NCBI GenBank assembly: GCA_942493375.1
Contig: OW818698.1
Coordinates: 1,813,455-1,877,454 of the forward strand
Direction: 5' to 3'
Length of the DNA stretch: 64,000 bases
Source: Abditibacteriota bacterium
Lineage (GTDB): Bacteria; Armatimonadota; UBA5829
Part shown: positions 200 through 21,617 of the stretch, one piece after another
Layout: the number at the start of each line of letters is the position of its first letter
How positions within the stretch are numbered: the stretch's first letter is position 1
Program-made: the position numbers and the translations under genes
Notes under the pieces: generated by a model
Database searches by the model: none
The model's input: only the letters and a program-made list of their open reading frames with translations
Told to the model about the DNA's origin: nothing

Positions 200-1790
200 T
201 ATACTTGATGGTCCCACATTAGTGGCCCATAAACTTCCTTCATCGATCATCGCAGAAGCAGGCGGAGCCGGTATGTTGCTGAACGAGAAGATCACGCGAC
301 TTGTCGCGTCCCTTGTTGGATGACTAGACCGTCCTCCGCCTTAGCTTTTGCAAATTGCTGTGGATCAAACTCCGATTGATCACGTGCTATTGCATATATC
401 AACTTTAGGAATTTTCGTGCCACAGCAATTCTGATTTGCCCTGTCTTTTTGCCTTGTGCTTTTACTTCTTTTGAATATGAGTCATATAAGCCACCTGTTT
501 TGATCTGAATTATGGCCATATGACAGATTATATATCTTGCCAGTGCGCGTCCACGCTTACTTATGTGTTTTTCTCCACTGTGTTTGCCACTGGAGACTTC
601 AAAAAGGTTCAATCCAATATATTTTTCAAGTGATGCATATGAATCATATTTGCTTATATCCCCGCACTCACCCAATAGACCTGCCACACTTACAACTCCC
701 ACGCGTGGCAGACTAAGCAGGCACTGCGCTATCTTGAGTGTCTGAAGGATCGCATCCATTTCACATTTCAGTTGTTCTCGGCGCAATTCGACCATCTCTA
801 AATAATTCAGTAAGGATACCATCGCATTATGTCGTGTCTGTTGACCCAGTTTTGCCGCAATAGAACGCTTTGCAGCCAGGGCCACCACTTCAGCTTTGTG
901 TGCCATTCTGCCGGAAGTCGCCTTTTTGAGCGTGCACCTTATACTAGTTATCCTCGAATTGGCTACTTCATCAGCATTTGTATACTTTCTAACTATACCT
1001 CTCACACTCTTGCAAACAGCGTCTTTGAAGATGTCTCTCAACTCTGGAAACCACACTTCCAGATGACATTGAAATTCGTTCCTGAGAGAAGTGCGTTTCT
1101 TAGTCAGAGAATCCCATTCTGCAATTGCGCAGCGTAGCTGCGCATATTCATCCGTCAGCTCCTGCACTTCCTGATAACATCCCTGCCAGACTAGATCAGC
1201 TATCACACGCGGATCCTTAAGATCATTCTTCTTGGGAGAGTTATCTCTCACTTCTTTGGTGCGTTTCACATGGTAAGGATTTACCTGGACTAACCTCAGT
1301 TCATTTCGTTGCACCCATTCCCTGAAACAAGTGCTGTATGGACCAGTCGGCTCGAAAGCAATCCAGAGATCGTAACCTGCATAAATCAGGATATTCACGA
1401 ATGATAGAAACTCTGTGTAACCATCGGCATTTTGTAAGGATCGGTGCATAATGGATTTCTCAGCATACCGGAAAGCACCGTAATCGATCCATCCCTTGCT
1501 GATGTCTACACCAACAACTATACCATTCACCGGATTTGGGACAGCTTGACAATCTTTCTTGTTAATAAGCATACTTTTCATGGTAGGTTCTCCTTGGTTT
1601 TTTTGTGCACATTAATAATACCAAGAAGCACCTACTACATTATAGGAAGCTGAATGCAGCGAATGACCTACTGTAAATCCTGCACATCAACTAACTGGGC
1701 CATATTCTAAGTTTGCATGTTATGCGCATTATGCAATTGTCTTTTCCGATAAATCTGCGTAAATCTGCGAAATCTGCGGATAATTATTTC
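200..1790 (-). mobile_element. IS110-family insertion sequence; boundaries approximate
   Basis: One long ORF at 292..1581 shows IS110/IS1111 transposase hallmarks. It has non-coding flanks of about 90 and 200 bp. I recognise no terminal inverted repeats, which is typical for IS110. The upstream non-coding end is the expected location of an IS110-type guide (bridge) RNA. Confidence 0.4.
292..1581 (-). CDS. IS110-family transposase (DEDD N-terminal domain, IS116/IS110/IS902 C-terminal domain)
   Basis: 429-aa ORF. The N-terminus 'GIVVGVDISKGWIDYGAF' matches the characteristic IS110 DEDD/RuvC-like motif. The product is basic. The ORF lies antisense to nothing else that is plausible. Confidence 0.88.
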   Translation of the reverse strand: MKSMLINKKDCQAVPNPVNGIVVGVDISKGWIDYGAFRYAEKSIMHRSLQNADGYTEFLSFVNILIYAGYDLWIAFEPTGPYSTCFREWVQRNELRLVQVNPYHVKRTKEVRDNSPKKNDLKDPRVIADLVWQGCYQEVQELTDEYAQLRCAIAEWDSLTKKRTSLRNEFQCHLEVWFPELRDIFKDAVCKSVRGIVRKYTNADEVANSRITSIRCTLKKATSGRMAHKAEVVALAAKRSIAAKLGQQTRHNAMVSLLNYLEMVELRREQLKCEMDAILQTLKIAQCLLSLPRVGVVSVAGLLGECGDISKYDSYASLEKYIGLNLFEVSSGKHSGEKHISKRGRALARYIICHMAIIQIKTGGLYDSYSKEVKAQGKKTGQIRIAVARKFLKLIYAIARDQSEFDPQQFAKAKAEDGLVIQQGTRQVA

Positions 1791-7805: not shown

Positions 7806-10800
7806 GTGAAATCCGCCCTGTACTCAGTAACCGTTGTCCTGTGCATCTTGGCCACTTGGCCCTTAGCCGCACTCGCTGAAGGCGATCCGGCGGCGCGCGA
7901 CTTGGCCGCGAGTATCCAAGTACCCTCCACAATCTTCCGCGATCAGGACCTGACGGGCATGATCGAAGTGACGAACAAAGGCGCGACGGACCGCCCCGGC
8001 GCAATCTACGTCAGGCTCAACAGCCGTAAGGGCTTCTCCAAGATCATCGACTCGCGGTTCCCCGGCAAGATGGGGGATACCGTGAAGTACCAGCTTGCCA
8101 TCCCAAGTTTCGACTTCGACGGCCTTGGAGGCAAGTTCGAAGTCTTCTATCGCGACCCAGAATTGCGCGACACCGTTCTCACGACGCAACCTCTCTCCGT
8201 GGTATACCAGCGGACACCCAGACCCGGCGAGAACATGCTCGCGAACGGCGGGTTTGAGTTGGTCAACAGGTTCTGCGGCACAACTCTTGGCGCTAGAGAC
8301 GCCGACATGAGATGGGGCAACCCGCGCTGGTGGACGGAGCTTCCCATCGATGGCTGGTGGGCTGAAGGGACGACCGCCAGAGGCATCAGCCTCGCATCGA
8401 GCGGACACACGGGCAGCCGATCCCTGCGGATAAGTGCGGCACGGGGCGCGGTGACCGTAGCTTCGTCATTCGGGCGGTACGTACCCGACGGCAAGGTGAC
8501 GCTGAGCGCCTGGGTGAAGACCAACGGCGCCAAAGGCGAACTGTTCCTAGACATGATCTCGGATTTAAACCTCGCGCGGCAGAGGAGAGCCGATGCCCGC
8601 AAGACCGCCTCGCTCCCTGAGAACTCCGACTGGACCCGAGTGTCCGTGACCCTGGACAATCCGAGCACGAATTCGGCAGTCGTCCGGATCAGCGTGGAGA
8701 AGGGCCTGGTGATGGTCGATGATGTCCAAGTGGAACTCAGCGGCAAACCCAACGCGTTCAACGTTCGCCCCGAGGAGTACCTCCGTCTGTCATTCGGCGA
8801 CGGTGATGGTTCCGTGATGCCAAAGTGGACAACCTCAGACATCGGAGAGCGGACCGTTCGCGTCTACAACGATTCTCGCGTCCCGCTTAAGGGCAAAGTG
8901 ATTCTGCAGTTCGGACCGTGGAACATACCGGCTCAGATGTTCATCGGGTCATTCGACATCTCCACGCTGCCTCCGGGCAAGTTCCAGGCGTTTCGGTTCT
9001 CTACTTCCGGTCTGCGGTCAGATGGATATGTGGTGACAGGCCGACTCCAGCAAGCGGCGACAGTCATCCATGACGGCCTGTGGGACTTCGACCCCTACGC
9101 GTTTACCGCATACCAACTCGGTAATATGCTCCATTCCCGAATCGCCGCCCGGTTCGCGCTTCTTCGCAAGATCGACCCAGAGAAGCTCTTCGGCATCGGC
9201 AACTCGACCCAGCAGAAGTTCTCGCTCGGTCTTGACAAGCCCTACATCGACTACTACCTCGAACAGAAGGAAATCGGGCTTACATGCACGCGTGGCGGCA
9301 GTGACGATAACGAGACCTTTATGCGCGCCGCAGCGGGCGGCCTGCCGGTCTATACCACGGAGCAATACGATGGCGCGCCCGCGGGCTTCAAGTTTACCAA
9401 CCCGTGCTCACCTGGTCGGCTGGATGTATACAGCATAGAAGGGCGCAAGTTGCTCAAGAAGCGCGGGGAAGAGGTTGGCCGAGACTTCGCGTCCAACCCG
9501 GCGGTTGTTGGTGTGCAGCTCGCGAACGAGCAGTTCTGGGCGAACGGCCCGATCCCCTGCCCGACCAAATCCGCCGATGACAACTTCCGGGCCTGGTGCA
9601 AGAAACGCCACGCGAGCCTGAAAGCCCTAAACCAACGCTGGAACACCAGCTACACAATCTGGGATCAAGTTACGCAGGTCGTCTCCGAACCATTCTACAA
9701 GAGCCTTATGGCAAGGAAAAAACGCGAGGGGGCTTCTGTCGATTGGGGTTGGATGAACTGGGCGCAGACCTGGCCGAAAGAGCCTGTCGACGAACTGGAC
9801 CGCATCCCCGGCAAGACGATGGACTGGCTGCGCTGGCGGACCCAGACCGGTGTGGAGGCGTACATGACCTTCATCAAGGCCGCCAAGAAGTACGACCACA
9901 AGACGCTCTACGGGACCGATCTACCCATCGACACGTTCGTAAAGCAGTTCGTGATTCCGTTCATCCGCGCAACCGACGCGGCTATGATAAACACCCGTTA
10001 CACCTCCGGTTACCCAGTCTCTTTCGGCACTCCGCATGAGAACATAGCCAACCTCGAACTCGCCGAGTCGGTAGCCGAAGGCAAGCCTTTCTGGGGAATC
10101 GAAATCTACGCCAAAGCCACGTGGCCCGCGGAATCGACCGCCCTCCAGAACTGGGGTCTGATCGCCCACGGGATGAGTGTGCCTCTCGTCTTCAGTTGGT
10201 ATCCGATGACCGATACCGGCACGCCGACCAAGGTCCTGGAATGGGAAGAACGGCTCAAGAAGGGAGGCAACATTTTCGGCTACGCAAGCTGGTATATGAT
10301 CGACGTAGACGGCGCGCGCCTGCCGATCTTCGACCCGTACGTGCGATCGCTGAGAGAGGTCAAGCGGTTCCACGAGACCTTCGACGGCACGACGATCCAT
10401 CGCGCAAAGACAGACATCGCCTACTATGTATCCAACGACACCTCCGAGCACGACCTTCTCATCACCAAGTACGCGCCCTGGGGAGCGATTCCCGAGCGGG
10501 TATCATTCAACCTGATCTACATGCTGCGCATGAACGGAATAGCGGCGGACTATGTGGACGATGCCAACCTTCCGAATGCCCCCGGCAAGTTCAAGACTGT
10601 GATCGTGCCCTTGGCGGATGTGCTCAGTCAGGCTGCCGCGACTAAGTTGGCATCGTTCGCAAAGAAGGGCGGGACCCTGGTACTCGTCGGCCTATCGGGA
10701 CAAATGGACCCTTGGCTGCGCAAGTACGGGCACATTGGCGGGCCGGCTTGGAGCGAACTAGGGTGGTACGCTCCGAACTACAATGAAGGTTTCCGCCCGT

Positions 10801-11417
10801 ACATTTTCGACCCCAACCTGGCCCTGCCTGACGGAGCGGCTCGCTCCGGTACCGACACCGCAGGCACACAGAATGAGCAGAGAGACGATTCACCCAACGA
10901 AGCCGCCGTATTTCGTGGAACGGCATTCGGCACAGTCGCCGGCGCTAAGGCCATACGGGACACGAAGGGCAACACGGTAGGGTGGACGCGTAAGTGGGGC
11001 AAGGGCAAACTGATCGCCTATGGCATCTGCCCGGACACATGGACCACGGACCCCCACCTCACACTCAATACGCAGGCATGGATGCAGCAGTTGATCGGTT
11101 TGGCGAGTCTCAGATACGCGGGTCGTTGGACCACAACGTCGGCAACGTCTCGTAAGGGCGTGAAGGTAGGAACAGGCATGCCTGCGGTGGATTTGGTGGT
11201 GAGAGAGAAGTCACCGAAGGAGAAGATCATTTTCGTACTTAATCAGGGCGGTGAAGGCGAAGGGGTGATCGAGATACCGGTACGGGCAGACGTGTGGCGT
11301 GCCGAGGACGCGATCGACCCGACGCAACCAATCACCGGGTCCATGGCCAGCGGCGTCTGGAAGACCCGTGTTACGCTTCCGCCACTGGGGTACAGAGTCA
11401 TAAGGCTACACAGATAA
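7806..11417 (+). CDS. Secreted GH42-like (beta-galactosidase-like) glycoside hydrolase with an N-terminal beta-sandwich/CBM-like region; G+C-rich gene
   Basis: GTG start preceded by GGAGG, then a signal peptide. A 'VGVQLANEQFW' TIM-barrel block is followed by a GH42-type trimerisation-like block 'KFKTVIVPLADVL...KGGTLVLVG'. The gene is conspicuously more G+C-rich (~60 %) than its neighbours. Confidence 0.5.
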   Translation: MKSALYSVTVVLCILATWPLAALAEGDPAARDLAASIQVPSTIFRDQDLTGMIEVTNKGATDRPGAIYVRLNSRKGFSKIIDSRFPGKMGDTVKYQLAIPSFDFDGLGGKFEVFYRDPELRDTVLTTQPLSVVYQRTPRPGENMLANGGFELVNRFCGTTLGARDADMRWGNPRWWTELPIDGWWAEGTTARGISLASSGHTGSRSLRISAARGAVTVASSFGRYVPDGKVTLSAWVKTNGAKGELFLDMISDLNLARQRRADARKTASLPENSDWTRVSVTLDNPSTNSAVVRISVEKGLVMVDDVQVELSGKPNAFNVRPEEYLRLSFGDGDGSVMPKWTTSDIGERTVRVYNDSRVPLKGKVILQFGPWNIPAQMFIGSFDISTLPPGKFQAFRFSTSGLRSDGYVVTGRLQQAATVIHDGLWDFDPYAFTAYQLGNMLHSRIAARFALLRKIDPEKLFGIGNSTQQKFSLGLDKPYIDYYLEQKEIGLTCTRGGSDDNETFMRAAAGGLPVYTTEQYDGAPAGFKFTNPCSPGRLDVYSIEGRKLLKKRGEEVGRDFASNPAVVGVQLANEQFWANGPIPCPTKSADDNFRAWCKKRHASLKALNQRWNTSYTIWDQVTQVVSEPFYKSLMARKKREGASVDWGWMNWAQTWPKEPVDELDRIPGKTMDWLRWRTQTGVEAYMTFIKAAKKYDHKTLYGTDLPIDTFVKQFVIPFIRATDAAMINTRYTSGYPVSFGTPHENIANLELAESVAEGKPFWGIEIYAKATWPAESTALQNWGLIAHGMSVPLVFSWYPMTDTGTPTKVLEWEERLKKGGNIFGYASWYMIDVDGARLPIFDPYVRSLREVKRFHETFDGTTIHRAKTDIAYYVSNDTSEHDLLITKYAPWGAIPERVSFNLIYMLRMNGIAADYVDDANLPNAPGKFKTVIVPLADVLSQAAATKLASFAKKGGTLVLVGLSGQMDPWLRKYGHIGGPAWSELGWYAPNYNEGFRPYIFDPNLALPDGAARSGTDTAGTQNEQRDDSPNEAAVFRGTAFGTVAGAKAIRDTKGNTVGWTRKWGKGKLIAYGICPDTWTTDPHLTLNTQAWMQQLIGLASLRYAGRWTTTSATSRKGVKVGTGMPAVDLVVREKSPKEKIIFVLNQGGEGEGVIEIPVRADVWRAEDAIDPTQPITGSMASGVWKTRVTLPPLGYRVIRLHR

Positions 11418-11759: not shown

Positions 11760-13088
11760 TTAGTAACACTGAAGCATAGTCCATACTTTGTCGAAATCAT
11801 GAGTTGCCAGTGCATCTTTTGGAATCCAGAAGTAGAGACGTCCGGAATCACCCCACATCATACCTATTCTCTCTTCTGTACCTATTTGCAGGAGTAACCG
11901 CCAGTCGGCAGCACGAACTCCCGGTGACGGATCGTTGTCACCGGAATCATTATCATGATGGAAACCTTGTGTCGCTAACTGACACTCCACTTGCATATCG
12001 TCCTGGACTATGTCCGGATTTCCCAATAATCGATGGGTAGAATGCAACTCGAAATACTCCACCAATGGCTGTGATATATTCTGATACGCTGACATCTCCT
12101 GAATGCTCATATCCAGCTTGAATACATCATGGGACTCACTTGCTGGAAAGCTGTCTTCCTGAGAAAAACTGACGCGGCAGTTACCAAACCTGGCTTCCTG
12201 CGGAAGGTTCCTGGGTGCTTTTCTCCGGACAATGCTAGTAAGGTCGCCGTTGAAATAGATCACCTTACAAGAACCCGCGTCAGCAGGATCACTACCCCAT
12301 GCATCCTGATATGCATCATAGAAAAAATACATCATACCATCGGTGGGTAGAAGATTATCTATATCATATTTCGCTACATCAGACATTCTGAACTGGGCAA
12401 TAAACGAGAGAGGATCTGTCCCCCATTTCGGCCAGGGAATATCTAGAGGCATATCAGGAAGTCCTCCCACTTTGGAAACGCCTAATTCCAGTTCCTCTTT
12501 TGTGGGTTCACAGTTGATAATGATGGAGCTGAGACAGAGTGCTAGCAGATCATCTTCGTATCTGGAAAGACCTGCCAAACGGAGAGCTTGAGCATACTCC
12601 TCCTTTGACATTTTTGGTCTCATCTCATCGTCAGGAAAAAGAATCTCGTTGTCATCGGCACATTCCTCAGGAGTCAGTGCCTGCAAATCATTTTCACTAC
12701 CGCTCTTCTGCTCTTCCCATTCTTCCAACCGCAATCTTGCAGCAAGAGTATACAAACTGTCTTCAGAACCTTTTGCATATTTCCGAAAAGTATCAACCGC
12801 TTTCATTTCAACAAATGTCTTCAGTAGATATACAGCTGCTGTTAATGCAACACTACCTGACTCATGATCCAGTAATTTAGCTAGCTCCTGCACACCTTCT
12901 TCTGATTCTCTGAGCTTATCTACAGCCTTTTCATAGCGCTTTTCCTGTTTCCTGATGTATTTTCTACCAAGAGATTCCCAAATACCTCTATCGTGCTCCA
13001 GCAAACCTTCCACAAATTCTTTACAATAGTATTCATAATCCTTAATCATCGCTGTGTTGCTCCTCAGATAAAGTAGGTAACTTTTCAT
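11760..13088 (-). CDS. DUF1963 (YwqG-family) domain protein with an N-terminal helical domain
   Basis: C-terminal blocks 'GGLPDMP...WP', 'LLLQIGTEE' and 'MMWGDSGRLYFWI' are typical of DUF1963. It is the last gene of the minus-strand operon. Confidence 0.5.
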   Translation of the reverse strand: MKSYLLYLRSNTAMIKDYEYYCKEFVEGLLEHDRGIWESLGRKYIRKQEKRYEKAVDKLRESEEGVQELAKLLDHESGSVALTAAVYLLKTFVEMKAVDTFRKYAKGSEDSLYTLAARLRLEEWEEQKSGSENDLQALTPEECADDNEILFPDDEMRPKMSKEEYAQALRLAGLSRYEDDLLALCLSSIIINCEPTKEELELGVSKVGGLPDMPLDIPWPKWGTDPLSFIAQFRMSDVAKYDIDNLLPTDGMMYFFYDAYQDAWGSDPADAGSCKVIYFNGDLTSIVRRKAPRNLPQEARFGNCRVSFSQEDSFPASESHDVFKLDMSIQEMSAYQNISQPLVEYFELHSTHRLLGNPDIVQDDMQVECQLATQGFHHDNDSGDNDPSPGVRAADWRLLLQIGTEERIGMMWGDSGRLYFWIPKDALATHDFDKVWTMLQCY

Positions 13089-13125: not shown

Positions 13126-14256
13126 TTAATCCAGCGTCACAACCGGTGACGTTCCGGTGGCAAGATATGCTATACGACGGGTATTGGGATCAAAAGCCAA
13201 TATGTATCCTGAAAGATGGAAAACTATAAAATCTCTCTGCATTATTGTAGGTGTATTAGCCATCCCGTATATTCCGTATCCAGCCAGACCGAAGGATTCG
13301 CTGTGACCATCCGGATATTCTACCCGCAACCCGGATTCATAGGGATAACCAGTGCTTGCTGTTAACTTCCGTTGTCCCTTTGGACGCAAATCTACAGCAT
13401 AATCATTAACTTTTTCCAATTTGCGTTCTCTTGGTTCGGAATCGGGACTTATCCAGTAGAGGTTTGATGTCTTTCGGGAGAAGGCTTTTGATACTATCTG
13501 CTCATCTCTGGTCTCTTTGAGCTCAACCCAAAGGTCCCATGCGTCACTCTTCGGCTGCTGCTTAATGAACAGAGCCCTTGGGTCAGCTTGAATGTTTGAG
13601 TTTACCACTTGATCACCTTTACCGCCCAGACCTACTTTGTGCACGAAACCATCTGAAGAGGATACGTAGTAAACATGCCCATTCATACCTTGGGTTAATG
13701 CAGAAGCATCAATTATGTGAGTCCTTGTAACGGCAGTAATATTGCCGACCAGTAGATAAAGCAACATAAGACCGGCATATGATACTGAGTTCACCAGCAC
13801 CGAAGCCTTTAACGAACCGTTCCACTTAAGATCACCAAGCAAAGTAGAATTGCGGATGGCAAGGTATATAAAAGGCAGTTCAATAAAAATCGTAAAGAGA
13901 TAGGCCAATATCCAATATATCGGTATACCGACTTTGGTGCCCACAAGAGGATTCGCCCATAGACCAGCAAAACGGTTCAATGGTTCCACATAATGCATAA
14001 TCAGGGCCCCAACAACAGCCGATACAAAATTAGCTGCAACCATAAGGCCAAAAATCCTGAAGGAAGCAAGACTGTATCGCTTACTCAGAATCTGAGCCTC
14101 AATTAAGGCGATACCGACATTGCCATATATAAGATGGAATACCCCAAGCCATATAAATGGGGTTCCCATATTAGCCCATGCAGCACTGGAAGCGGTGATG
14201 AGTAGAGCTACCAGCATAGTGAAATCAAATATTCTATTTTTTCGCATAAGTCGCAT
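13126..14256 (-). CDS. Integral membrane protein (about 5 N-terminal TM helices) with a C-terminal soluble domain
   Basis: Hydrophobic N-terminal half and a hydrophilic 200-aa C-terminal domain. It lies 24 nt downstream of the Hsp70-like gene. Confidence 0.55.
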   Translation of the reverse strand: MRLMRKNRIFDFTMLVALLITASSAAWANMGTPFIWLGVFHLIYGNVGIALIEAQILSKRYSLASFRIFGLMVAANFVSAVVGALIMHYVEPLNRFAGLWANPLVGTKVGIPIYWILAYLFTIFIELPFIYLAIRNSTLLGDLKWNGSLKASVLVNSVSYAGLMLLYLLVGNITAVTRTHIIDASALTQGMNGHVYYVSSSDGFVHKVGLGGKGDQVVNSNIQADPRALFIKQQPKSDAWDLWVELKETRDEQIVSKAFSRKTSNLYWISPDSEPRERKLEKVNDYAVDLRPKGQRKLTASTGYPYESGLRVEYPDGHSESFGLAGYGIYGMANTPTIMQRDFIVFHLSGYILAFDPNTRRIAYLATGTSPVVTLD

Positions 14257-14280: not shown

Positions 14281-15876
14281 CTACACCAGTTTCACGACAG
14301 GATAATCCTTATTCATGATCCGTCCCGTAGGTAAGTCTTTGACTGTTATGACCAGCCGCTTGTTTTCATCCAGGTTGAACTCTACTCCGAACCTGGGTTC
14401 TCCCTGTTTAGCTGGGGGGTCGGCTAACAGGAACGTGGGGTTGTGTTCATTCATCCAGAAGTGGGTCCTTCTCTGTTCCTCTTCAGATGAGACCGACACT
14501 ACCCTCGCAGCGCCGGTGGGGTCGAAGACTAATTCTACCGGGTTTTCATCCCCCCTCTTACGCTGCTCTCCCATTTCATATATCGCTATACCCAGTTGCT
14601 TCTGCTGATCAAATGAGGCTTTGATGGTCATTTTGGCGATTGGAGATACACTGGGATAAGATGTCCCACGCTTGACTATTGTCCTGTAGTCATACGCCCC
14701 TTTTTCACGGTTTACAAACTGGATTGCATAGTCGTGCTGGATATGGTCGAAAAAATCAACTCCGGCAACAAATGCAGCACCGCCACGCGCGACTGCATCC
14801 AGCGGTCTGTTCAAGTTTACTCGGTCTTTTCCGAATATACGTTGGACTGTGCGCTGGACGGATGGGATCATGCTGCTACCGCCGACCATCAACACGGATT
14901 TTATTGACTCCTCCGAATAGCCGCGCTCCCTTGCAGCATTCATTGCCCTGCGGATGACTGAGTCCATCGATGCAAATAAATCGTGCTGGTCTAGAATATC
15001 CTCGAAATTGTCTCTGCTAATACTCGCAGATATTGCAGCGCCGGTGGTTGGGTTGATTACACTTATATCCGCTTTCTCATTGAATGTAAGCCTTTCCTTG
15101 AGGCGTTCGCATTCTACAAGCAGCGACCGACTGATCTGCCTGACATCTTCATCCATATCACTGCGTCCATTTCTGCGCAGAATATCTTCGAATAGCCACT
15201 GGTCTATTACTGACCCACCGATGTCTATGCCTGCTTTACCCAGCACTCGACACCTGCGTCCGGCAGTCGCCTGGTCCTCTTCTTCAATCAGCACAATGGC
15301 CACATGCAGTGTGCCTCCACCAAAGTCCAGAACCAGATACACATCACCCGGTTGAATCTTAACACCATAACCCAGCGCAGCCGCTGAGGGTTCGTCGATC
15401 AACCTGAAACGTCTCATTCCAGCCTTTTCAGCTACACCGGTAAGCCAGTCTTCGTAATGCTCATATGAATCTACAGGGACAGTAAATGCGACCTCATCCT
15501 CTGCGGCATTTGTCTGGTTGACGGCAAATGCCAGCACAGCTGTCAGAAAATCACTCCCCGCATCACAGTAGGATATATCCTTGCCATCTATCTGGAACTT
15601 TGCAGGACTGCGGTGACAGATATAGCGTTTCATCCATCGAAAAGTGCGGGGTGATGCATCGTAAAGGTTCTGCTTAAGCACCTGGTCACCGTGCCAGCGT
15701 CGTTTATCTTCACTATAATGGATAAGAGAGGGAACCGTGGATATCTCCGCACCGGCAATGGAATAATAGTGCCCAAGGTCGGGAATATGCAGAGGAACAC
15801 CCTCCTGCAATGTCTCATCCCAGACCGCTACAACAGTATTACAAGTCCCAAAATCCACAGATAATCGTCCAGCCAT
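14281..15876 (-). CDS. Divergent Hsp70-family ATPase (Hsp70/actin-fold NBD, non-canonical C-terminal region)
   Basis: Phosphate-1 'VDFGTCNTVVAV', phosphate-2 'LVLDFGGGTLHVAIV' and adenosine motif 'LMVGGSSMIPSVQRTVQRIFG'. The C-terminal ~150 aa do not look like a DnaK substrate-binding domain. Confidence 0.7.
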   Translation of the reverse strand: MAGRLSVDFGTCNTVVAVWDETLQEGVPLHIPDLGHYYSIAGAEISTVPSLIHYSEDKRRWHGDQVLKQNLYDASPRTFRWMKRYICHRSPAKFQIDGKDISYCDAGSDFLTAVLAFAVNQTNAAEDEVAFTVPVDSYEHYEDWLTGVAEKAGMRRFRLIDEPSAAALGYGVKIQPGDVYLVLDFGGGTLHVAIVLIEEEDQATAGRRCRVLGKAGIDIGGSVIDQWLFEDILRRNGRSDMDEDVRQISRSLLVECERLKERLTFNEKADISVINPTTGAAISASISRDNFEDILDQHDLFASMDSVIRRAMNAARERGYSEESIKSVLMVGGSSMIPSVQRTVQRIFGKDRVNLNRPLDAVARGGAAFVAGVDFFDHIQHDYAIQFVNREKGAYDYRTIVKRGTSYPSVSPIAKMTIKASFDQQKQLGIAIYEMGEQRKRGDENPVELVFDPTGAARVVSVSSEEEQRRTHFWMNEHNPTFLLADPPAKQGEPRFGVEFNLDENKRLVITVKDLPTGRIMNKDYPVVKLV

Positions 15877-15879
15877 GCC

Positions 15880-16404
15880 CTACTCCTCAGCCTTCTCAAC
15901 GCCGGCTTTACGCAGGATTCGGTTGTTGTATGTCACGCTTGGAATCCTTACATACACATATTCACCCCGATTGATATAGACATCATTGCTGATGGGCTGA
16001 TGCAGGTCCGGATCATAGGCCTGCGTATTATCTGTCATTTCACTGACCTTGAAGCCTTCTGATTCCAGCGCTCTGATAAGACTGCCTGCAACAGCGATGA
16101 CATCCCTGGCCTGCACCGGTTTACCTGCTTCAACAAGATAAGCCTGAGTAGTCAACTGGGCAGCAGGCGCTGCTATGCTGTCAAAAAGCCTTTCCAACCT
16201 CGAATCCGTCACTGCAGATATACGCGAACTCTCACCACCGCGCATTGACTCTATATCCGACCTGAGCCTTGTGACAGTCTCAGCTCGCTCCTGGGATTCC
16301 ATCTGCAGACGCCTGATTTCACGCTGCATATCGGTATCGAGTTCATCATTGCGTTCAATCTTTACAGCGTCTTTTCCGAATATCTTATCTATCCAACTTG
16401 GCAT
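15880..16404 (-). CDS. GrpE-like nucleotide-exchange factor
   Basis: Coiled-coil N-terminal half. GrpE-like 'FDPDLHQ' and a C-terminal 'V..V...GY....RILRKAGV' beta-domain pattern. Its stop lies 3 nt from the Hsp70-like start. Confidence 0.6.
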   Translation of the reverse strand: MPSWIDKIFGKDAVKIERNDELDTDMQREIRRLQMESQERAETVTRLRSDIESMRGGESSRISAVTDSRLERLFDSIAAPAAQLTTQAYLVEAGKPVQARDVIAVAGSLIRALESEGFKVSEMTDNTQAYDPDLHQPISNDVYINRGEYVYVRIPSVTYNNRILRKAGVEKAEE

Positions 16405-16413
16405 ATAGTCCTC

Positions 16414-18627
16414 TCACCCTTCAATCTCTATATCGAACTCCCCGACCTGTATCGTGGCAGCTTCACCTATTTCGATGTCATAACGATACCGGTGGCGCAG
16501 CACGCACTGCAAAAATGCCAGTGCAGAACGGACATCCTCGGATAGCATCATCTCTTCAAGCAACTCAGCAATTGCAGTCAGATCATCATGAAAAGCCCTA
16601 CCGCAAGGACGGGACAAAAGTCCTGGGATGTCCAGCACGCGCAGGTCCCAGAGCGACATCCTGGACTGCGAATCCCCCAGGGCCATAAAAAATCCATCAG
16701 GAGAGACATGCAGTGAAGTTAAAGAGCCTCCAGGCAGGTCTATCTTCCCGATAAGCTGCTGGGTTTGTGTCGAAGTAAACCGCAGTTTTCCATCGGTGCT
16801 GGCTGAGATGATTACAGAATATCTGGATGGTATTGCCACTCCACACACCGGAGCTGGATGTGCACACAGCTTCTGAGGCACTATACGCTTCCCATTGGCG
16901 GAGTAATATTCGTAATCCACCAACTTCTCTCGCATATCTGCCAATATGTCCATACCGCTGGATGACTGAGCTTCAACAGATTTGTGCGCTTTACTGTATT
17001 CCAGCAGACTACAATACAACACCTGACCGCTCAGATATCCAGCCACTAGTTCATTATTGGCTGTTGAAAAGGCTGCACAACTCGAAACGCTGCTGGATGC
17101 CCAGGTACTGATTGAAAGGTCTTTTAAATCAGGTAGTGACACGACAAAACCACCTTTGACCACCAATGCAGCTCTGCCGGCATTGGTGGAAACACATGCA
17201 GTCCTCGGCCAGTCACGAAACCTTCGCTCAGCCACCATTTTCCGCTCCGGTATGCTCCACACCCGGCCATAATGATCTCGCCCCGTTGTCAAGAGCATCG
17301 AATTCCCAACCGGCTCCAGGGCTGTCAACGAACCTCTGTGAGTGCCGAGTTTCAACAACTCACCGTCAGCCCACGTGTAGACCGAACACTGATCAGAACC
17401 ATTAGTCCTCTCCGAACAGACCAGATCACTGCTCCCGGTAAAATTCACATTACCAATTGAGTGTTCAAATCCATTAATCAAAGCATACTGTTCGGCTTTT
17501 TGAAAATCCCACAGTGCCACTTTCCGATTACCACTCCCTATCGCAATTACAGGCTTGTTGGGAGAGAATGCAAGGTCGTTTATGCGGCCGGAAACATTTG
17601 CTGTAGCTCGTTGCAGTGCAGGTGGCAGTGCCCGGGTTATCTGATCCAACGATAAGATGATCTTGTCCGGGACAATTTCAGCCAACTGGTGATATGTCTG
17701 CTTGTCCAGTTCGTCTGCCGGAACCCAGTCTGCACGGATCAGGTGCTGCATAATCTGTATTCCCCAGCAGACCGAAAGCTCAAATACCAAAGGCCATAGC
17801 TTGGGCCACTCCCGGTTGTTCACCAGCATCTGGACCATCATCTCGGCTTCACTGTCGGACATCTCCACAGCGCGAGACCTATAATCCCCACCGACCACAA
17901 CAGTCAGGAAATCTGTTCTACCAGTTTTACGAAGCTTGTCTGTAATAGAATGGCGCAGTTTCGGTTCGGCAGACTCAAATACAGTCCTCAGCAGTCTTTG
18001 GTCAAAGTCCAGGGATTCATACTGCTCCCACTGCTCAGTCAGGAACAAAAATGCAGCACGCTGAGCAGCATCGTTAGGAAGATATCCACATTCAACTGCA
18101 ATCTCAAGTGCTGTTTGATTAGAATCATATATAGCTATCCGGCAGAGTTCATTTTTAGTGTCCTGCCTACCGAGAGTCCGCAGCATGTCATTTGCAGTAT
18201 TTGAAATAGTAAGATTTTTATCATCCAATGATTGGAGTAATGGATATATATGTTTTATACCAATAGACTTAAAAACATCCGTTCTGCCTTGCAATAGCGC
18301 AGTCTGAACGTTTAATTGCAACGGAGCGGATGCCACCCACTTTTGCTCATTAATGAGTTGCTCAAGAACAGGAATCCTGCGTTCTAACCATAGGTTACAA
18401 ATATCATTGATTCTTTTAGTAGCATCTACTTGTTTAAGGCGTTCATATGCTATGACACGAACGCGGGAATCAACATTGTCGATAAGAGCCTCTGTGAGTA
18501 TATTAAGTGCAACATTCCCACCATCGGATGCCAGTGCACGAGCTGCTCTGCGGCGTAACCATCCTCCGATTAGTGGAATAGTGTTCTTTAGAGACCATCG
18601 ATATCTTATTAGTTGGAATAAAGTCAA
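16414..18627 (-). CDS. HEAT/ARM-repeat + WD40 beta-propeller scaffold protein
   Basis: N-terminal helical repeats. WD-like repeats end 'VALWDFQ', 'RVWSIPE' and 'MSLWDLRV'. 737 aa, with a 9-nt gap to the GrpE-like gene. Confidence 0.55.
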   Translation of the reverse strand: MTLFQLIRYRWSLKNTIPLIGGWLRRRAARALASDGGNVALNILTEALIDNVDSRVRVIAYERLKQVDATKRINDICNLWLERRIPVLEQLINEQKWVASAPLQLNVQTALLQGRTDVFKSIGIKHIYPLLQSLDDKNLTISNTANDMLRTLGRQDTKNELCRIAIYDSNQTALEIAVECGYLPNDAAQRAAFLFLTEQWEQYESLDFDQRLLRTVFESAEPKLRHSITDKLRKTGRTDFLTVVVGGDYRSRAVEMSDSEAEMMVQMLVNNREWPKLWPLVFELSVCWGIQIMQHLIRADWVPADELDKQTYHQLAEIVPDKIILSLDQITRALPPALQRATANVSGRINDLAFSPNKPVIAIGSGNRKVALWDFQKAEQYALINGFEHSIGNVNFTGSSDLVCSERTNGSDQCSVYTWADGELLKLGTHRGSLTALEPVGNSMLLTTGRDHYGRVWSIPERKMVAERRFRDWPRTACVSTNAGRAALVVKGGFVVSLPDLKDLSISTWASSSVSSCAAFSTANNELVAGYLSGQVLYCSLLEYSKAHKSVEAQSSSGMDILADMREKLVDYEYYSANGKRIVPQKLCAHPAPVCGVAIPSRYSVIISASTDGKLRFTSTQTQQLIGKIDLPGGSLTSLHVSPDGFFMALGDSQSRMSLWDLRVLDIPGLLSRPCGRAFHDDLTAIAELLEEMMLSEDVRSALAFLQCVLRHRYRYDIEIGEAATIQVGEFDIEIEG

Positions 18628-18780: not shown

Positions 18781-20316
18781 CTAAGACAATCCCCCATCAT
18801 GGAGTTCTATTTTTATTGGTACAAATTTTTCAACCGCATCCGAAGCTGCTTCAAATGATGCAGACTGCGCACGGCCCTCTTTCAACCAGTCCCTTAGCAT
18901 AGTTATTGACTCAGACTGGGAAACAGATAGCGGGACCTGGCGGCTGAGAGCCAGAAGGATGTCGTCCGTATTGAACTCCCTGTGTTCATTAAATGCCAGA
19001 TACATAGCCTCAATAATAGACTGCTCTATCTCAGCCCCAACATATCCCTCTGATGCCTTCGCGCACCGCTGGCAATCAAAATCCTGAGGGATCCTGTTGC
19101 GTTTGCGCAAGTGTACAGTGAAGATTTCCTGACGCTCCTCCAAAGTCGGCAGGTCAAGGAAGAAAACCTCATCGAACCGCCCCTTTCTCAGTAGCTCCGG
19201 AGGTATAGCCTGGATGTCATTGGCAGTTGCAACTACAAAACACGGAGCAGTCTTCTCCTGCATCCATGTCAGGACCGTCCCGAACACCCGGGTACTGGTC
19301 CCGCTATCATTTCCACCGCAGGCCAGTGTCTTTTCGATCTCATCAATCCATACGATACACGGGGCCACAGTCTCTGCAATTCTTAGAGCCCGCCTGGTTC
19401 GTTCCTCTGACTCACCGACCAGACTCCCAAACAGCGAACCAGCATCCAGTCTGAGCAAAGGCAGTCTCCACAATCCGCCGATCATCTTGGCTGTCAGGCT
19501 TTTTCCTGTCCCTGGAATCCCAATCAGTGCAATTCCCTTGGGTGCAGGCAACCCATAATCCCGGGCTTCCTGGGTAAACGCACGTTCCCGCAGCCTGAGC
19601 CATTCTTTGAGAACTCCCAAACCACCAACATCGTCCAGAGTCTCAGTTATGGAATAAAACTCCAGCGCCTCGCTCTCCCTGATGATCTGTTTCTTCTCCT
19701 GGGTAACAAGCTCAATATCGGTATCATCTAACTTGCCATCGCGGACGATTGCCTTAGCCAGTGTCCTCTGAGCCTGACTGGCGGAGAGACCTATCGCAGC
19801 CTGTAGCAATTTCTCACGTCCAAGAGCAGTCAACTGTAGTTTTAAACCAGGTGTCTGAGTCAGACGGTCCAGGACTGCGCTGAGTTCAGCCACATTAGGC
19901 AGAGGGAAATCAATTATTACCGTTTCATCTTTGAGCTCGGGTGGGATTTTTGCAGAAGGTGCCGTAATAAGTATGGACTTACGGGTAAATTTGAGTTTCT
20001 GAGCCACACTTCGCAGTTTGCGTTTTATGACAGCATTATCCCAGCACTCGTGGAAATCCTTGAGTATGACCAGAACATCCCCATCGAGTTTGTCGACCTG
20101 CTCCAGTGCGGATTTGGGATCTGCTGCAGAAGGAACCGAACATGAACCGGTAAGCAGATGGAACCCTTCGGCCACGTCCCACATCAAACACGGACGGCCC
20201 ATGCGGTCACAGGCACACTTGATTGTCTGCAGGACCCTCTCCTCCTCAGGTGACACCAGGACCATCAGTGTGAAACGTGCGCGCAAATATACATCGAAAT
20301 CCTGCTCAAAACTCAT
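18781..20316 (-). CDS. AAA+ ATPase (classical CDC48/FtsH-clade single AAA module) with a ~250-aa N-terminal domain
   Basis: Walker A 'GIPGTGKS', Walker B 'CIVWIDEIE' and a second region of homology 'VVATANDIQAIPPELLRKGRFD'. Confidence 0.8.
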   Translation of the reverse strand: MSFEQDFDVYLRARFTLMVLVSPEEERVLQTIKCACDRMGRPCLMWDVAEGFHLLTGSCSVPSAADPKSALEQVDKLDGDVLVILKDFHECWDNAVIKRKLRSVAQKLKFTRKSILITAPSAKIPPELKDETVIIDFPLPNVAELSAVLDRLTQTPGLKLQLTALGREKLLQAAIGLSASQAQRTLAKAIVRDGKLDDTDIELVTQEKKQIIRESEALEFYSITETLDDVGGLGVLKEWLRLRERAFTQEARDYGLPAPKGIALIGIPGTGKSLTAKMIGGLWRLPLLRLDAGSLFGSLVGESEERTRRALRIAETVAPCIVWIDEIEKTLACGGNDSGTSTRVFGTVLTWMQEKTAPCFVVATANDIQAIPPELLRKGRFDEVFFLDLPTLEERQEIFTVHLRKRNRIPQDFDCQRCAKASEGYVGAEIEQSIIEAMYLAFNEHREFNTDDILLALSRQVPLSVSQSESITMLRDWLKEGRAQSASFEAASDAVEKFVPIKIELHDGGLS

Positions 20317-20320
20317 TAGT

Positions 20321-20905
20321 TCATTCTCCAGTTATCTGTTTAAAATCGAGCGGGTCAATACCGGTGATCATTATCTGCCCATCATCAGATATTATCACTT
20401 CACCAGAAGGGATTATTGCCAGGTCATTTATACTATATCTATCAGTCAGGAAATGGACAGTCTGGTTAGTTGATCCTAACAACCCGGTTGATGAGCGTAA
20501 AGCTTGTTCATACCGTCCAGCAATCAGTACGTCCACACACGCCAGCAGCTCATCCGAATGCTGCATCCTCGATATCTCATCCCAGCTATATCCGGTAAAA
20601 AGCAGGATAGAGAGATCCGAATGTTTTTTGATATAGCCAAGGAAACAAGTCAACGCATCGATCTGTTCAAGAGGTTCACCACCACTTATGGTTATTCCCT
20701 CTATGGAATCACCAAACGAAATAACTCGATTACATAAGTAACTAACTGTAACACGTTCACCAGAATCAACCGGATGCGTTTCCGGATTGAAACAGCCAGG
20801 ACAATTGAGTGAGCACCCCTGTACCCAGATAACACACCGGCACCCGGGGCCGTTGGAATCACTCTGTGGAATGAAAGCATGCAGTTGCAGGTAGATTTCA
20901 TCCAC
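20321..20905 (-). CDS. Radical-SAM activating enzyme, NrdG/PflA-like (4Fe-4S single-cluster domain)
   Basis: 'VIWVQGCSLNCPGCFNPETH' is the CxxxCxxC variant typical of anaerobic RNR activases. A 'GGEPL' motif is present. 194 aa. Confidence 0.65.
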   Translation of the reverse strand: MDEIYLQLHAFIPQSDSNGPGCRCVIWVQGCSLNCPGCFNPETHPVDSGERVTVSYLCNRVISFGDSIEGITISGGEPLEQIDALTCFLGYIKKHSDLSILLFTGYSWDEISRMQHSDELLACVDVLIAGRYEQALRSSTGLLGSTNQTVHFLTDRYSINDLAIIPSGEVIISDDGQIMITGIDPLDFKQITGE

Positions 20906-20908
20906 AGA

Positions 20909-21115
20909 TCAGAACCCCTGCTTCTGCCAGTCCTGAACAGTTTCCTTTGCAGTGTCGAGAGCTTCAGCAGTCATCTCCCTTGATTCAACATCTCCCCCGA
21001 GAGCCTGCTCCAATTCAGCAGTGAGATCAAGGCAGGTTGTACCTTTAGCTCCATGCACCGCCACCCTGACCTGTCCATTTGGTTCGATTATGACTTCTAT
21101 TTCCTGTACGTCCAT
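20909..21115 (-). CDS. DUF2997-like small protein
   Basis: 68 aa. The pattern 'IEVIIEPNGQVRVAVHGAKGTTCLDLTAELEQALG' matches my memory of the DUF2997 family. It lies 4 nt from the radical-SAM gene. Confidence 0.45.
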   Translation of the reverse strand: MDVQEIEVIIEPNGQVRVAVHGAKGTTCLDLTAELEQALGGDVESREMTAEALDTAKETVQDWQKQGF

Positions 21116-21182
21116 TATGTCCTCACACTCAACTGTTTAGCGCGCATTATTCATGATTGACGCGCTTGGTAAATAAAGCGGG

Positions 21183-21617
21183 TTAGGCGGTTCTTCGCAG
21201 TACCAGCCGGATACGTTTATCACTATCCACATCTTCAGACACAAGAGAGAATCCCTGTTCTTCCAATTTGGCCATTGCTGCATGATAGGCATAGCGCTGG
21301 GCAACTTTCTTCGTAAAATCCACCTGACCCACGCCCTTAACACCCCACCAGTCAGCCACAATTTCGTATCCGTCATCTTGTTTCTTGAAACCTATGTCAT
21401 ATCCACCTTTTCCTGTAGATACTTGAATATCCACAGGGGTTCGTATCAAACCAAAAGTTCTGATTTTACCTTTTTCTACAGCAGTATAGCCAAGATCCTT
21501 AATTGCAGCTAATATGTATGCTTTCTGAACCATTCGTGTCTTTATTCGGGCAATATGAGACATTTCGCGCACCTCGATGCTAACTACCGATACAATAACG
21601 TATTTTCTATTCTGCAA
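21183..21617 (-). CDS. DUF1257 (Ycf35-like) family protein
   Basis: 144 aa. The architecture is typical of DUF1257 proteins, which pair with DUF2997 and AAA+ genes in cyanobacteria. It is the first gene of the minus-strand operon, with a divergent promoter region at 21618..21822. Confidence 0.45.
   Translation of the reverse strand: MQNRKYVIVSVVSIEVREMSHIARIKTRMVQKAYILAAIKDLGYTAVEKGKIRTFGLIRTPVDIQVSTGKGGYDIGFKKQDDGYEIVADWWGVKGVGQVDFTKKVAQRYAYHAAMAKLEEQGFSLVSEDVDSDKRIRLVLRRTA

Follow-up and report, generated by a model that had tools for sequence, protein, structure and literature searches.

This report concerns a radical S-adenosylmethionine (radical-SAM) enzyme of 194 amino acids (aa) from an Abditibacteriota bacterium (assembly GCA_942493375.1), encoded on contig OW818698.1 within the 64,000 nucleotides (nt) from position 1,813,455 to 1,877,454, the whole of which we call the window. 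Judged from sequence comparisons, the enzyme appears to belong to a distinct and widespread sister group of NrdG that bears an additional C-terminal tail and is routinely mis-annotated as NrdG itself. Its gene keeps company with those for a DUF2997 protein, a DUF1257 (Ycf35 family) protein and a Ycf46-like AAA+ ATPase. We propose, with moderate confidence, that it is a subunit of this cassette derived from the activases of glycyl-radical enzymes (GREs) and would take hydrogen from a segment of a protein, with the DUF1257-DUF2997 module as the favored partner or substrate. That the substrate would be a protein, its identity and the chemical outcome are points that we infer from the comparisons laid out below.

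Motifs, profile matches and predicted fold of the radical-SAM enzyme

A preliminary description of this locus, made from the sequence alone, had recognized an NrdG-type activase by the stretch VIWVQGCSLNCPGCFNPETH and the signature GGEPL. Both are present in the 194-aa open reading frame (ORF), the former at residues 25-44, which include the cluster cysteines C31, C35 and C38, and the NrdG and Fer4_12 profiles agree with this assignment. The enzyme and its recognizable elements are as follows, in coordinates of the window:

20321..20905, minus strand: radical-SAM enzyme, NrdG-type, 194 aa, GTG start (Fer4_12, E = 4.5e-35)
20837..20854, minus strand: N-G-P-G-x-R glycine-rich loop, residues 18-23, aligning with D16-R21 of the Escherichia coli pyruvate formate-lyase (PFL) activating enzyme (PFL-AE)
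20792..20815, minus strand: CX3CX2C [4Fe-4S] cluster motif (C31, C35, C38), invariant in both homolog alignments
20669..20683, minus strand: GGEPL with the GGE SAM-binding motif, residues 75-79; G75, G76, E77 and P78 invariant in 40 homologs
20324..20419, minus strand: C-terminal tail with a conserved hairpin, residues 163-194 (about 30 aa), absent from true NrdG

In the alignment of 40 homologs the loop residues N18, G19, P20 and R23 are invariant and G21 nearly so, and the cluster cysteines, GGEP, GSxNQ and NGPGxR remain invariant in sequences down to about 30% identity. D16-R21 of PFL-AE is presumably part of its peptide-binding loop A. In PFL-AE, loop A closes over the peptide substrate (PMC10267522).

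In profile comparisons NrdG ranks first, followed by PFL-AE and other GRE activases, with QueE far behind. The NCBIfam model TIGR02491 (NrdG) matches with E = 1.2e-33 and 116.2 bits, below its cut-off of 126.1 bits, while the other NrdG models lie far under theirs (PRK11121, 79.8 versus 199; nrdG3, 59 versus 152; NrdG2, 48 versus 131). The PHROG family of the anaerobic ribonucleotide reductase (RNR) small subunit (PHROG 626) also matches (E = 3e-35), and chance can be dismissed as the source of these family matches. The QueE profile reaches 20 bits against a cut-off of 300, with E = 4e-4 versus 1e-33 for NrdG. An AlphaFold2 (AF2) model of the monomer (predicted local distance difference test, pLDDT, of 74) retrieves PFL-AE structures best in Foldseek (3c8f, 3cb8 and 8fo0; E about 1e-7; 28% identity over about 130 residues), with weaker matches to QueE (5th5, E = 4.5e-3), EpeE (about 0.03) and viperin (5vsm, 0.06). 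The invariance of the catalytic motifs and the predicted PFL-AE-like fold both point to a functioning enzyme, its active site being of the macromolecule-accepting activase type.

The size of the protein and its model are also compatible with QueE and viperin, and the weak QueE profile matches point the same way. Its substrate might then be a small molecule or nucleotide, the product serving as a signal for the ATPases or as a replication poison. The DNA-binding HHH_3 protein of certain plasmid cassettes described below and a gene resembling queuine-tRNA-ribosyltransferase (TGT) or DpdA, 4 kb off on one viral contig, could be accommodated in the same way. We consider this unlikely: the similarity to NrdG and PFL-AE exceeds that to QueE by orders of magnitude, the activase-specific NGPGxR loop is invariant and aligns with that of PFL-AE, and genes of nucleotide metabolism are not conserved in the cassette loci.

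The C-terminal tail follows the consensus '(R/F)Y..d....P..E-v-I-i..dG....tG-i-.P', in which E169, G176 and G182 are invariant among the 40 homologs. A hidden Markov model (HMM) of the tail matches 120 of the 120 top homologs; it is missing from the nrdD-adjacent NrdGs of loci L046, L048 and L049 and present in all NrdD-less relatives compared. In the AF2 monomer model it falls below a pLDDT of 50, and is thus predicted to be disordered. It has a motif, 'E-[IV]-x-[IV]...(D/N)G-x-[IV]', in common with the N-terminal hairpin of DUF2997 (residues 3-18; 21062-21109 in the window). When run against 6650 ORFs, the tail HMM retrieved, beyond the radical-SAM enzymes, exclusively DUF2997 N-termini (E = 0.003-0.02); in the reverse direction, the best matches of the DUF2997 N-terminal HMM beyond DUF2997 proteins were the radical-SAM tails (E = 0.05-0.1), and hhalign aligned the same 15 columns with a probability of 10%. 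These likenesses suggest that the tail could be a docking element that adds strands onto the DUF1257/DUF2997 body. In a neighbor-joining tree of the clade with NrdG and PFL-AE the true NrdGs group together; deep nodes are unresolved and carry no bootstrap values, and the tree was not used to argue for monophyly.

Absence of a glycyl-radical partner from the tail-bearing clade

The absence of a GRE from the window, also claimed in the preliminary description, holds up in three kinds of search. All window ORFs of at least 40 aa were scanned with the GRE pattern R[VIT]xG[YFW]; among the matches of at least 100 aa that were listed, two were found, both attributable to chance and neither of them a GRE: an 'RVVGY' at residue 37 of a 294-aa ORF without similarity to NrdD or GrcA, and one in an ORF antisense to the gene at 52296..54299. 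Searches of the window with phmmer found nothing, whether with two NrdD sequences from control loci or with a manually entered GrcA sequence.

The same holds for the relatives, in whose loci the pattern scan and the NrdD and GrcA queries likewise turned up no GRE. The protein database contains 1281 homologs at E < 1e-5, the top 120 at 51-85% identity, and their source names (JGI) are mostly 'NrdG'. A scan of one genome per species yielded 49 loci, whose ORFs were searched with the window proteins and iterated HMMs. The pooled clade set comprises 53 loci (window, genomes and plasmids); four viral contigs and the contigs L062 and L063 were kept separate. Genome loci fall cleanly into two groups, one with a short NrdG and nrdD, and the other with a tail-bearing enzyme and no nrdD. 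The short group (L043, L045, L046, L048 and L049) is marked by a match that stops near query residue 150 and by an nrdD gene directly upstream. Among IMG/VR contigs, three short enzymes adjoin nrdD, whereas four tail-bearing ones adjoin DUF1257 and DUF2997, three of these also with the AAA+ gene; on one further contig (L069) a tail-bearing enzyme was found with no cassette gene detected. In all, nrdD occurs in none of the 53 clade loci in the flanks searched, as against 5/5 genome and 3/3 viral loci among the short-NrdG controls, none of which has cassette genes.

These counts bear out the further suggestion that the partner of this activase is not a GRE. A GRE acting as the conserved partner of the subfamily had been named beforehand as the finding that would overturn the suggestion; at the level of the family none appears, as the lack of nrdD from all 53 loci, the tail and the conserved cassette neighbors together indicate.

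One might nevertheless take the protein for an ordinary NrdG that activates a distant nrdD, its position in the operon being incidental, given its near-threshold score (116 versus 126 bits) and the name NrdG that JGI gives to most homologs. We regard this as highly improbable in view of the contrast in nrdD linkage (0/53 versus 8/8), the clade-specific tail and a neighborhood that about ten phyla retain, its genes being tightly coupled in translation. The distribution of the clade speaks against it as well: members are carried by plasmids of Acinetobacter, Polaromonas, Rhodococcus and Paenarthrobacter, and Streptomyces encodes them too. The four plasmid-bearing genera are obligate aerobes, and they and Streptomyces rely on class I or II RNRs and are not known to have a class III RNR.

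The cassette of the window and its conservation

In the window the radical-SAM gene is embedded in a run of minus-strand genes:

21183..21563, minus strand: DUF1257 (Ycf35 family) protein, 126 aa from its MSH start (PF06868, E = 8e-22)
20909..21115, minus strand: DUF2997 protein, 68 aa (PF11211, E = 5e-18)
18781..20316, minus strand: AAA+ ATPase, classical clade, Ycf46-like, 511 aa (PF00004, E = 1.5e-27)
16414..18627, minus strand: HEAT and WD40 beta-propeller protein, 737 aa (Pfam WD40 and beta-propeller matches)
15880..16404, minus strand: GrpE-like protein, 174 aa (PF01025, E = 8e-6; 26.0 bits versus a cut-off of 25.8)
14281..15876, minus strand: Hsp70-like ATPase, 531 aa (PF00012, E = 4e-33)

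The ORF coordinates and Pfam matches agree with the earlier placement of the enzyme between DUF2997 and the AAA+ ATPase. Of the span 20321-21617 given for this segment, the lower end stands and the upper end lies too far out: the mechanically called DUF1257 ORF does reach 21617, but the conserved 'MSH' start is at 21563, so that the span overshoots the likely start by about 54 nt. The radical-SAM gene starts 3 nt after the stop of the DUF2997 gene, downstream of which it is translationally coupled, and 4 nt separate its own stop from the start of the AAA+ gene.

This arrangement recurs widely. DUF2997 is encoded on the same strand as the radical-SAM enzyme in 38 of the 53 loci and directly upstream of it in 29, ending within about 120 nt of its start and usually within 12 nt or overlapping it. 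DUF1257, the Ycf46-like AAA+ ATPase, an Hsp70-like protein, a WD40 protein and sometimes GrpE are recurrent neighbors in varying order. In a first tally, on contigs that were often just 2-7 kb long and thus limited the flank, 40 of 45 loci had at least one of AAA+, DUF1257, DUF2997 and Hsp70 in the available flank. Homologs of the WD40 protein were found in 19 related loci and those of the Hsp70-like protein in at least 25, and GrpE recurs in L002, L013, L025, L057 and L061. The contigs L062 and L063 and the four viral contigs show the same arrangement as the pooled loci, and plasmids carry it as well. The conserved neighborhood spans about ten phyla; bacterial hosts include Chloroflexota, Acidobacteriota, Verrucomicrobiota, Planctomycetota, Nitrospirota, Hydrogenedentota, Streptomyces, Deltaproteobacteria and spirochaetes, and archaeal ones a metagenome-assembled genome (MAG) each of Nanoarchaeia and Promethearchaeota.

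The DUF1257-DUF2997 module and the AAA+ ATPase

In DUF2997, G14 and C28 are invariant and G22, G25 and T32 are conserved at 99%; in DUF1257 the residues M1, S2, T9 and D71 are invariant. Natural fusions of the two proteins exist (P0175 and P0236), and AF2 models P0175 as a confident single body (pLDDT 86.6; predicted template modeling score, pTM, 0.79). Because of these fusions and this model, DUF1257 and DUF2997 are best regarded as one functional unit. In the secondary-structure string of P0175 three residues separate the last DUF1257 strand from the first DUF2997 strand, and the strands of the two may lie in a shared sheet. The top 150 DUF2997 representatives included no fusion to the radical-SAM enzyme, those to DUF1257 being the sole kind. 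Sequence profiles of DUF1257 and DUF2997 gave nothing significant against the PDB, and fold searches gave weak matches only, none informative, which we read as resembling helix-grip or TBP-like folds. A fusion also lies directly upstream of the radical-SAM gene on the IMG/VR contig L067 (5360-11724), where the TGT-like gene, which we read as DpdA-like, is found about 4 kb downstream.

The AAA+ ATPase has an N-terminal domain of about 220 aa with no Pfam match, and its best PDB matches are to the D2 domain of Cdc48/p97 (1e-49). It is covered over its full length by phrog_8638 (5e-148), PHROGs families also existing for the radical-SAM enzyme, DUF1257 and DUF2997, and phmmer matches it to the AAA+ protein adjoining DUF1257-DUF2997 in Geminocystis (2e-239). 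The label 'Ycf46' follows a COG-level JGI name rather than a curated model and is to that extent provisional. Full-length Ycf46-like AAA+ proteins (about 35% identity) are also encoded by mycobacteriophage Firecracker (L064; gp100, all neighbors of which are annotated as hypothetical proteins) and in 56 other phage records, from Corndog-like mycobacteriophages and from Pseudomonas, Rhizobium and Rhodobacter phages.

The DUF1257-DUF2997-AAA+ trio is found in Geminocystis, on a Paenibacillus plasmid and in Rhizobium phage RHph_I4, while cyanophages encode DUF1257 alone; the DUF1257 of the window is 50-56% identical to cyanobacterial homologs. Since in the cyanobacterial and phage cases the trio exists without the radical-SAM enzyme, the latter appears, on these comparisons, to be an optional accessory of an older and very widespread module. 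Toxin-antitoxin (TA) modules lie inside or beside three cyanobacterium-type cassettes lacking the radical-SAM gene (L055:7271-10035, L057:4789-6327 and L061:5890-6536); they comprise HigB/HTH, a Zeta toxin, Gp49/HTH_37 and a Cytotoxic-domain protein with DUF7683.

In the literature, a DUF2997-ycf35-fed7 gene cluster has been described in Synechocystis-type cyanobacteria (PMC4284462), and the ycf46 operon of S. elongatus is induced by stress and by (p)ppGpp, the trio being linked there to stress including oxidative stress, (p)ppGpp and KaiC (bioRxiv 10.1101/2025.07.21.665879). Papers on plastid genomes list ycf35 and ycf46 among the plastid genes of red-lineage algae. The cluster with fed7, the response of the cyanobacterial ycf46 operon to oxidative stress and the optional nature of the radical-SAM enzyme would all fit a role in parallel to the ferredoxin Fed7, namely that of an Fe-S redox or oxygen sensor or an electron-transfer subunit, with radical chemistry no more than secondary. 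This strikes us as very unlikely, because GGE, GSxNQ and the substrate loop do not vary even where identity drops to about 30%, which would be unexpected for a mere cluster carrier.

Variant cassettes and their partners

The loci can be sorted into three types. Type I, to which the window belongs, combines the AAA+ ATPase, DUF1257, DUF2997 and the radical-SAM enzyme with or without Hsp70, GrpE and WD40 proteins. Type II, found on plasmids of Rhodococcus, Paenarthrobacter and Bacillus cereus, has the same core plus the HHH_3 protein. Type III, from plasmids of Polaromonas, Acinetobacter and Rhizobium, has a radical-SAM enzyme of about 31-37% identity and neither DUF1257 nor DUF2997; here its start overlaps the stop of a Clp/Hsp100-type AAA_2 ATPase gene, and genes for a PIN-domain protein and/or a giant ATPase adjoin. 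In some distant variants it is an Hsp70-like gene that adjoins the radical-SAM gene. Thus, in all variants the enzyme is paired with a protein unfoldase or chaperone, whether or not that partner is orthologous.

Several individual loci deserve mention. On three proteobacterial plasmids (L050:1-9621, L052:1-9576 and L060:6133-14874) the distant tail-bearing enzyme and AAA_2 are accompanied by PIN_4 proteins (about 720-820 aa), by giant 'AAA domain' proteins (over 1200 aa where cut, and 2086 aa in L060) or by both; the set has the look of a separate system of several genes that has yet to be described. In a deltaproteobacterial locus (L032:4536-13507) the AAA+ domain is fused to Peptidase_M41, giving a soluble FtsH-like protein, the Hsp70-like protein has 890 aa, and a complete restriction-modification (R-M) module (C5 methylase, NgoFVII-type endonuclease and Vsr) is inserted between DUF1257/DUF2997 and the radical-SAM gene. 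Hydrogenedens (L014:1817-10582) has three AAA+ paralogs, one of them fused to a Ser/Thr kinase domain, and two FGE-sulfatase-domain proteins separate DUF2997 from the radical-SAM enzyme. In a Treponemataceae MAG (L039:861-9627) the pair of radical-SAM and AAA+ genes is flanked on one side by a gene for a phage baseplate hub (GPD-like) and on the other by VgrG/PAAR and M23-peptidase genes, a setting that reads as contractile-injection or type VI secretion system-like.

The consistent association with unfoldases or chaperones (Ycf46-type, Clp-type AAA_2, the FtsH-like fusion to M41, or Hsp70) raises the alternative of an external client, that is, a host or phage polypeptide held by the AAA+, Hsp70 and WD40 proteins, on which the radical-SAM enzyme would act as the effector of a conflict or quality-control system through radical damage, epimerization or cleavage. 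The variable conflict-type additions (PIN, giant ATPase, HHH_3, the kinase-AAA fusion and FGE-sulfatase domains), the R-M system and TA modules inside or beside cassettes, the carriage on plasmids and viral contigs and the precedent of a radical-SAM effector in FtsH-type ternary conflict systems (Kaur et al., 2020; PMC7159879) are all in keeping with it. Against this stand the conservation of the trio in cyanobacteria and the listing of ycf35 and ycf46 for red-lineage plastids, which, together with the stress-induced ycf46 operon, look more like housekeeping than immunity; the carriage of the trio by a lytic phage; the lack of PADLOC matches for the radical-SAM enzyme, DUF1257 and DUF2997, beside a weak IetA-like match of the AAA+ protein; and the setting of the window locus amid glycoside-hydrolase genes, with no obvious defense island. 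On balance we judge an external client to be rather improbable.

Mechanistic interpretation

The interpretation that we favor, in which the enzyme acts on a protein of the cassette, can be cast as follows. The radical-SAM enzyme would descend from the NrdG branch of the GRE activases, would no longer serve NrdD and would have been taken on as an accessory subunit by a mobile protein-remodeling cassette, the core of which is the putative Ycf46-type AAA+ unfoldase with DUF1257 and DUF2997, often joined by Hsp70-like, GrpE and WD40/HEAT proteins. The reduced [4Fe-4S]+ cluster would cleave SAM, and the resulting 5'-deoxyadenosyl radical would abstract hydrogen from a protein whose exposed loop or extended segment is held in the open activase-type site. 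The DUF1257-DUF2997 module would be the favored substrate or docking partner; the C-terminal hairpin of the radical-SAM enzyme may mimic the N-terminal hairpin of DUF2997, docking probably by beta-strand addition. Finally, the AAA+/Hsp70 machinery might expose the target or process the product. Possible outcomes would be a stable radical, epimerization, a cross-link or O2-dependent cleavage. The target of the clade as a whole is probably a protein of the cassette.

A more far-reaching version, which we put forward only tentatively, is that the clade, with more than 1000 sequences, represents a new class of protein-radical enzymes, in which an activase would install a radical on a protein other than a GRE, or put one to use there, in conjunction with an AAA+ unfoldase. 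Its target would be either the DUF1257-DUF2997 module or the enzyme's own C-terminal hairpin with its invariant glycines, and the radical might trigger, for example, irreversible O2-dependent backbone cleavage, epimerization or cross-linking.

Several observations weigh against the DUF1257-DUF2997 module as the partner or against a protein radical in general. The RVxG[YFW] glycyl-radical motif is absent from every cassette protein, and small radical-SAM enzymes of such a size, e.g. QueE, can use small molecules. The likeness between the tail and DUF2997 is short and no more than marginally significant. The trio occurs without the radical-SAM enzyme in Geminocystis, in other cyanobacterium-like contigs (with Hsp70 and GrpE) and in the lytic Rhizobium phage RHph_I4. 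In such cyanobacterial cassettes the DUF2997 residues G14, G22, G25 and C28 are equally conserved, as they are in 99% of 149 representatives of the family, so that these glycines and the cysteine were rejected as target residues specific to the radical-SAM enzyme; moreover, G22 and G25 are missing from deltaproteobacterial variants that do have it. Lastly, the type III loci have the enzyme without DUF1257 or DUF2997, and neither of the two can therefore be the universal substrate of the whole clade.

Other features of the window

One further gene continues the run of minus-strand genes:

13126..14256, minus strand: multi-pass membrane protein, 376 aa, starting 24 nt past the Hsp70 gene; no Pfam match

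No homolog of this protein was found in any related locus examined; it is specific to the window locus, and its membership in the cassette is thus doubtful. Together with a gene for a DUF1963 protein (11760..13088, minus strand), a family that we take to be YwqG-like, it follows immediately on the Hsp70-like gene, in the same orientation. The segment 8000-12000 has a GC content of 0.56-0.60 versus about 0.46 elsewhere in the window and is filled by a 1203-aa ORF (7806..11417, plus strand) with only a weak match to GH42 beta-galactosidase; the segment may have been horizontally acquired. An IS110-family transposase is encoded at the window edge (292..1581, minus strand), and most of the other large genes scanned encode glycoside-hydrolase-like proteins or sensor kinases. 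Promoter and terminator scans of the window did no better than shuffles, and Rfam and tRNA scans of it came back empty.

Implications

GRE activases are usually regarded as strictly paired with a GRE. The present clade appears to have exchanged that partner for unfoldases or chaperones and two DUF proteins. The naming of its members as NrdG would amount to a systematic annotation error, of relevance wherever anaerobic nucleotide metabolism is inferred from metagenomes. The cassette further offers a concrete pair of an enzyme and a candidate substrate, the radical-SAM enzyme with DUF1257-DUF2997, and links radical chemistry to the Ycf46/Ycf35 module, the function of which has been open for decades in cyanobacteria and plastids. 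Were a radical indeed placed on, or used with, a non-GRE protein, we would be dealing with a protein-radical system of a new type, one that would also provide a first biochemical handle on Ycf35 and Ycf46.

Comparison with previously described systems

The enzyme resembles NrdG in a core of about 150 residues with CX3CX2C, NGPGxR, GGEP, DxLxDG and GSxNQ, and is about 33-41% identical to bacterial and phage NrdGs. However, it scores below the curated cut-off, has the extra C-terminal hairpin tail of about 30 residues and, in the loci examined, is never beside nrdD, sitting instead with DUF2997, DUF1257 and the AAA+ ATPase. NrdG is a compact protein of about 150-160 aa that ends soon after GSxNQ, an architecture that the window enzyme does not share. 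An identification as NrdG was accordingly rejected on score, nrdD linkage and architecture, the cluster and GGE motifs being present all the same.

PFL-AE is the best structural match, with the (D/N)GPGxR loop aligned, but it has 245 aa with further barrel strands, and its substrate is the RVSGY loop of PFL. With respect to the GRE-activase superfamily, the fold and the glycine-rich loop are present, whereas a cognate protein with RVxG[FYW] was not found in the cassette or window. QueE was rejected on its profile score, as given above, and on the lack of conserved queC, queD and folE in the loci. PADLOC-DB v2 had no match for the radical-SAM, DUF1257, DUF2997, WD40 and GrpE proteins, and a known anti-phage system was likewise rejected; the similarities there are generic, of the AAA+ protein to IetA and of the Hsp70-like protein to PDC-M61B (E = 5e-7).

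Our literature search found no description of the clade or of its link to DUF1257, DUF2997 or Ycf46, the nearest accounts being PMC4284462 and PMC7159879. With the former, the cyanobacterial Ycf46/Ycf35/DUF2997 cluster, the window shares the trio as close homologs, with Hsp70 and GrpE linked in some cyanobacterium-like contigs: it has co-linear DUF1257, DUF2997 and a classical-clade AAA+ protein of about 500 aa in which the N-terminal domain is conserved. No radical-SAM gene is present in the versions examined from cyanobacteria and phages, the Fe-S neighbor in Synechocystis-type cyanobacteria being fed7 (PMC4284462).

The latter account (Kaur, Burroughs, Iyer & Aravind 2020, eLife; PMC7159879) concerns FtsH-type ternary systems, mobile ones that are known from planctomycetes, actinobacteria and deltaproteobacteria. 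In some of these conflict systems a radical-SAM enzyme likely modifies a small standalone protein. The parallels are a radical-SAM enzyme beside a classical-clade AAA+ protein (with an inactive N-terminal domain there) and a small proposed peptide substrate. Unlike in those systems, the defining MoxR and vWA components are absent from all eight operon proteins of the window; the supplement of that paper has no radical-SAM entries (PMC7159879).

Peptide-modifying radical-SAM enzymes differ in that the window enzyme has no SPASM/twitch or RRE domain, and phmmer gave no match between DUF2997 and GrcA. The epimerase EpeE and the spare-part glycyl-radical protein GrcA/YfiD serve as analogies alone: in each case the target of a radical-SAM enzyme is a small protein or peptide dedicated to it, the gene for which lies alongside.

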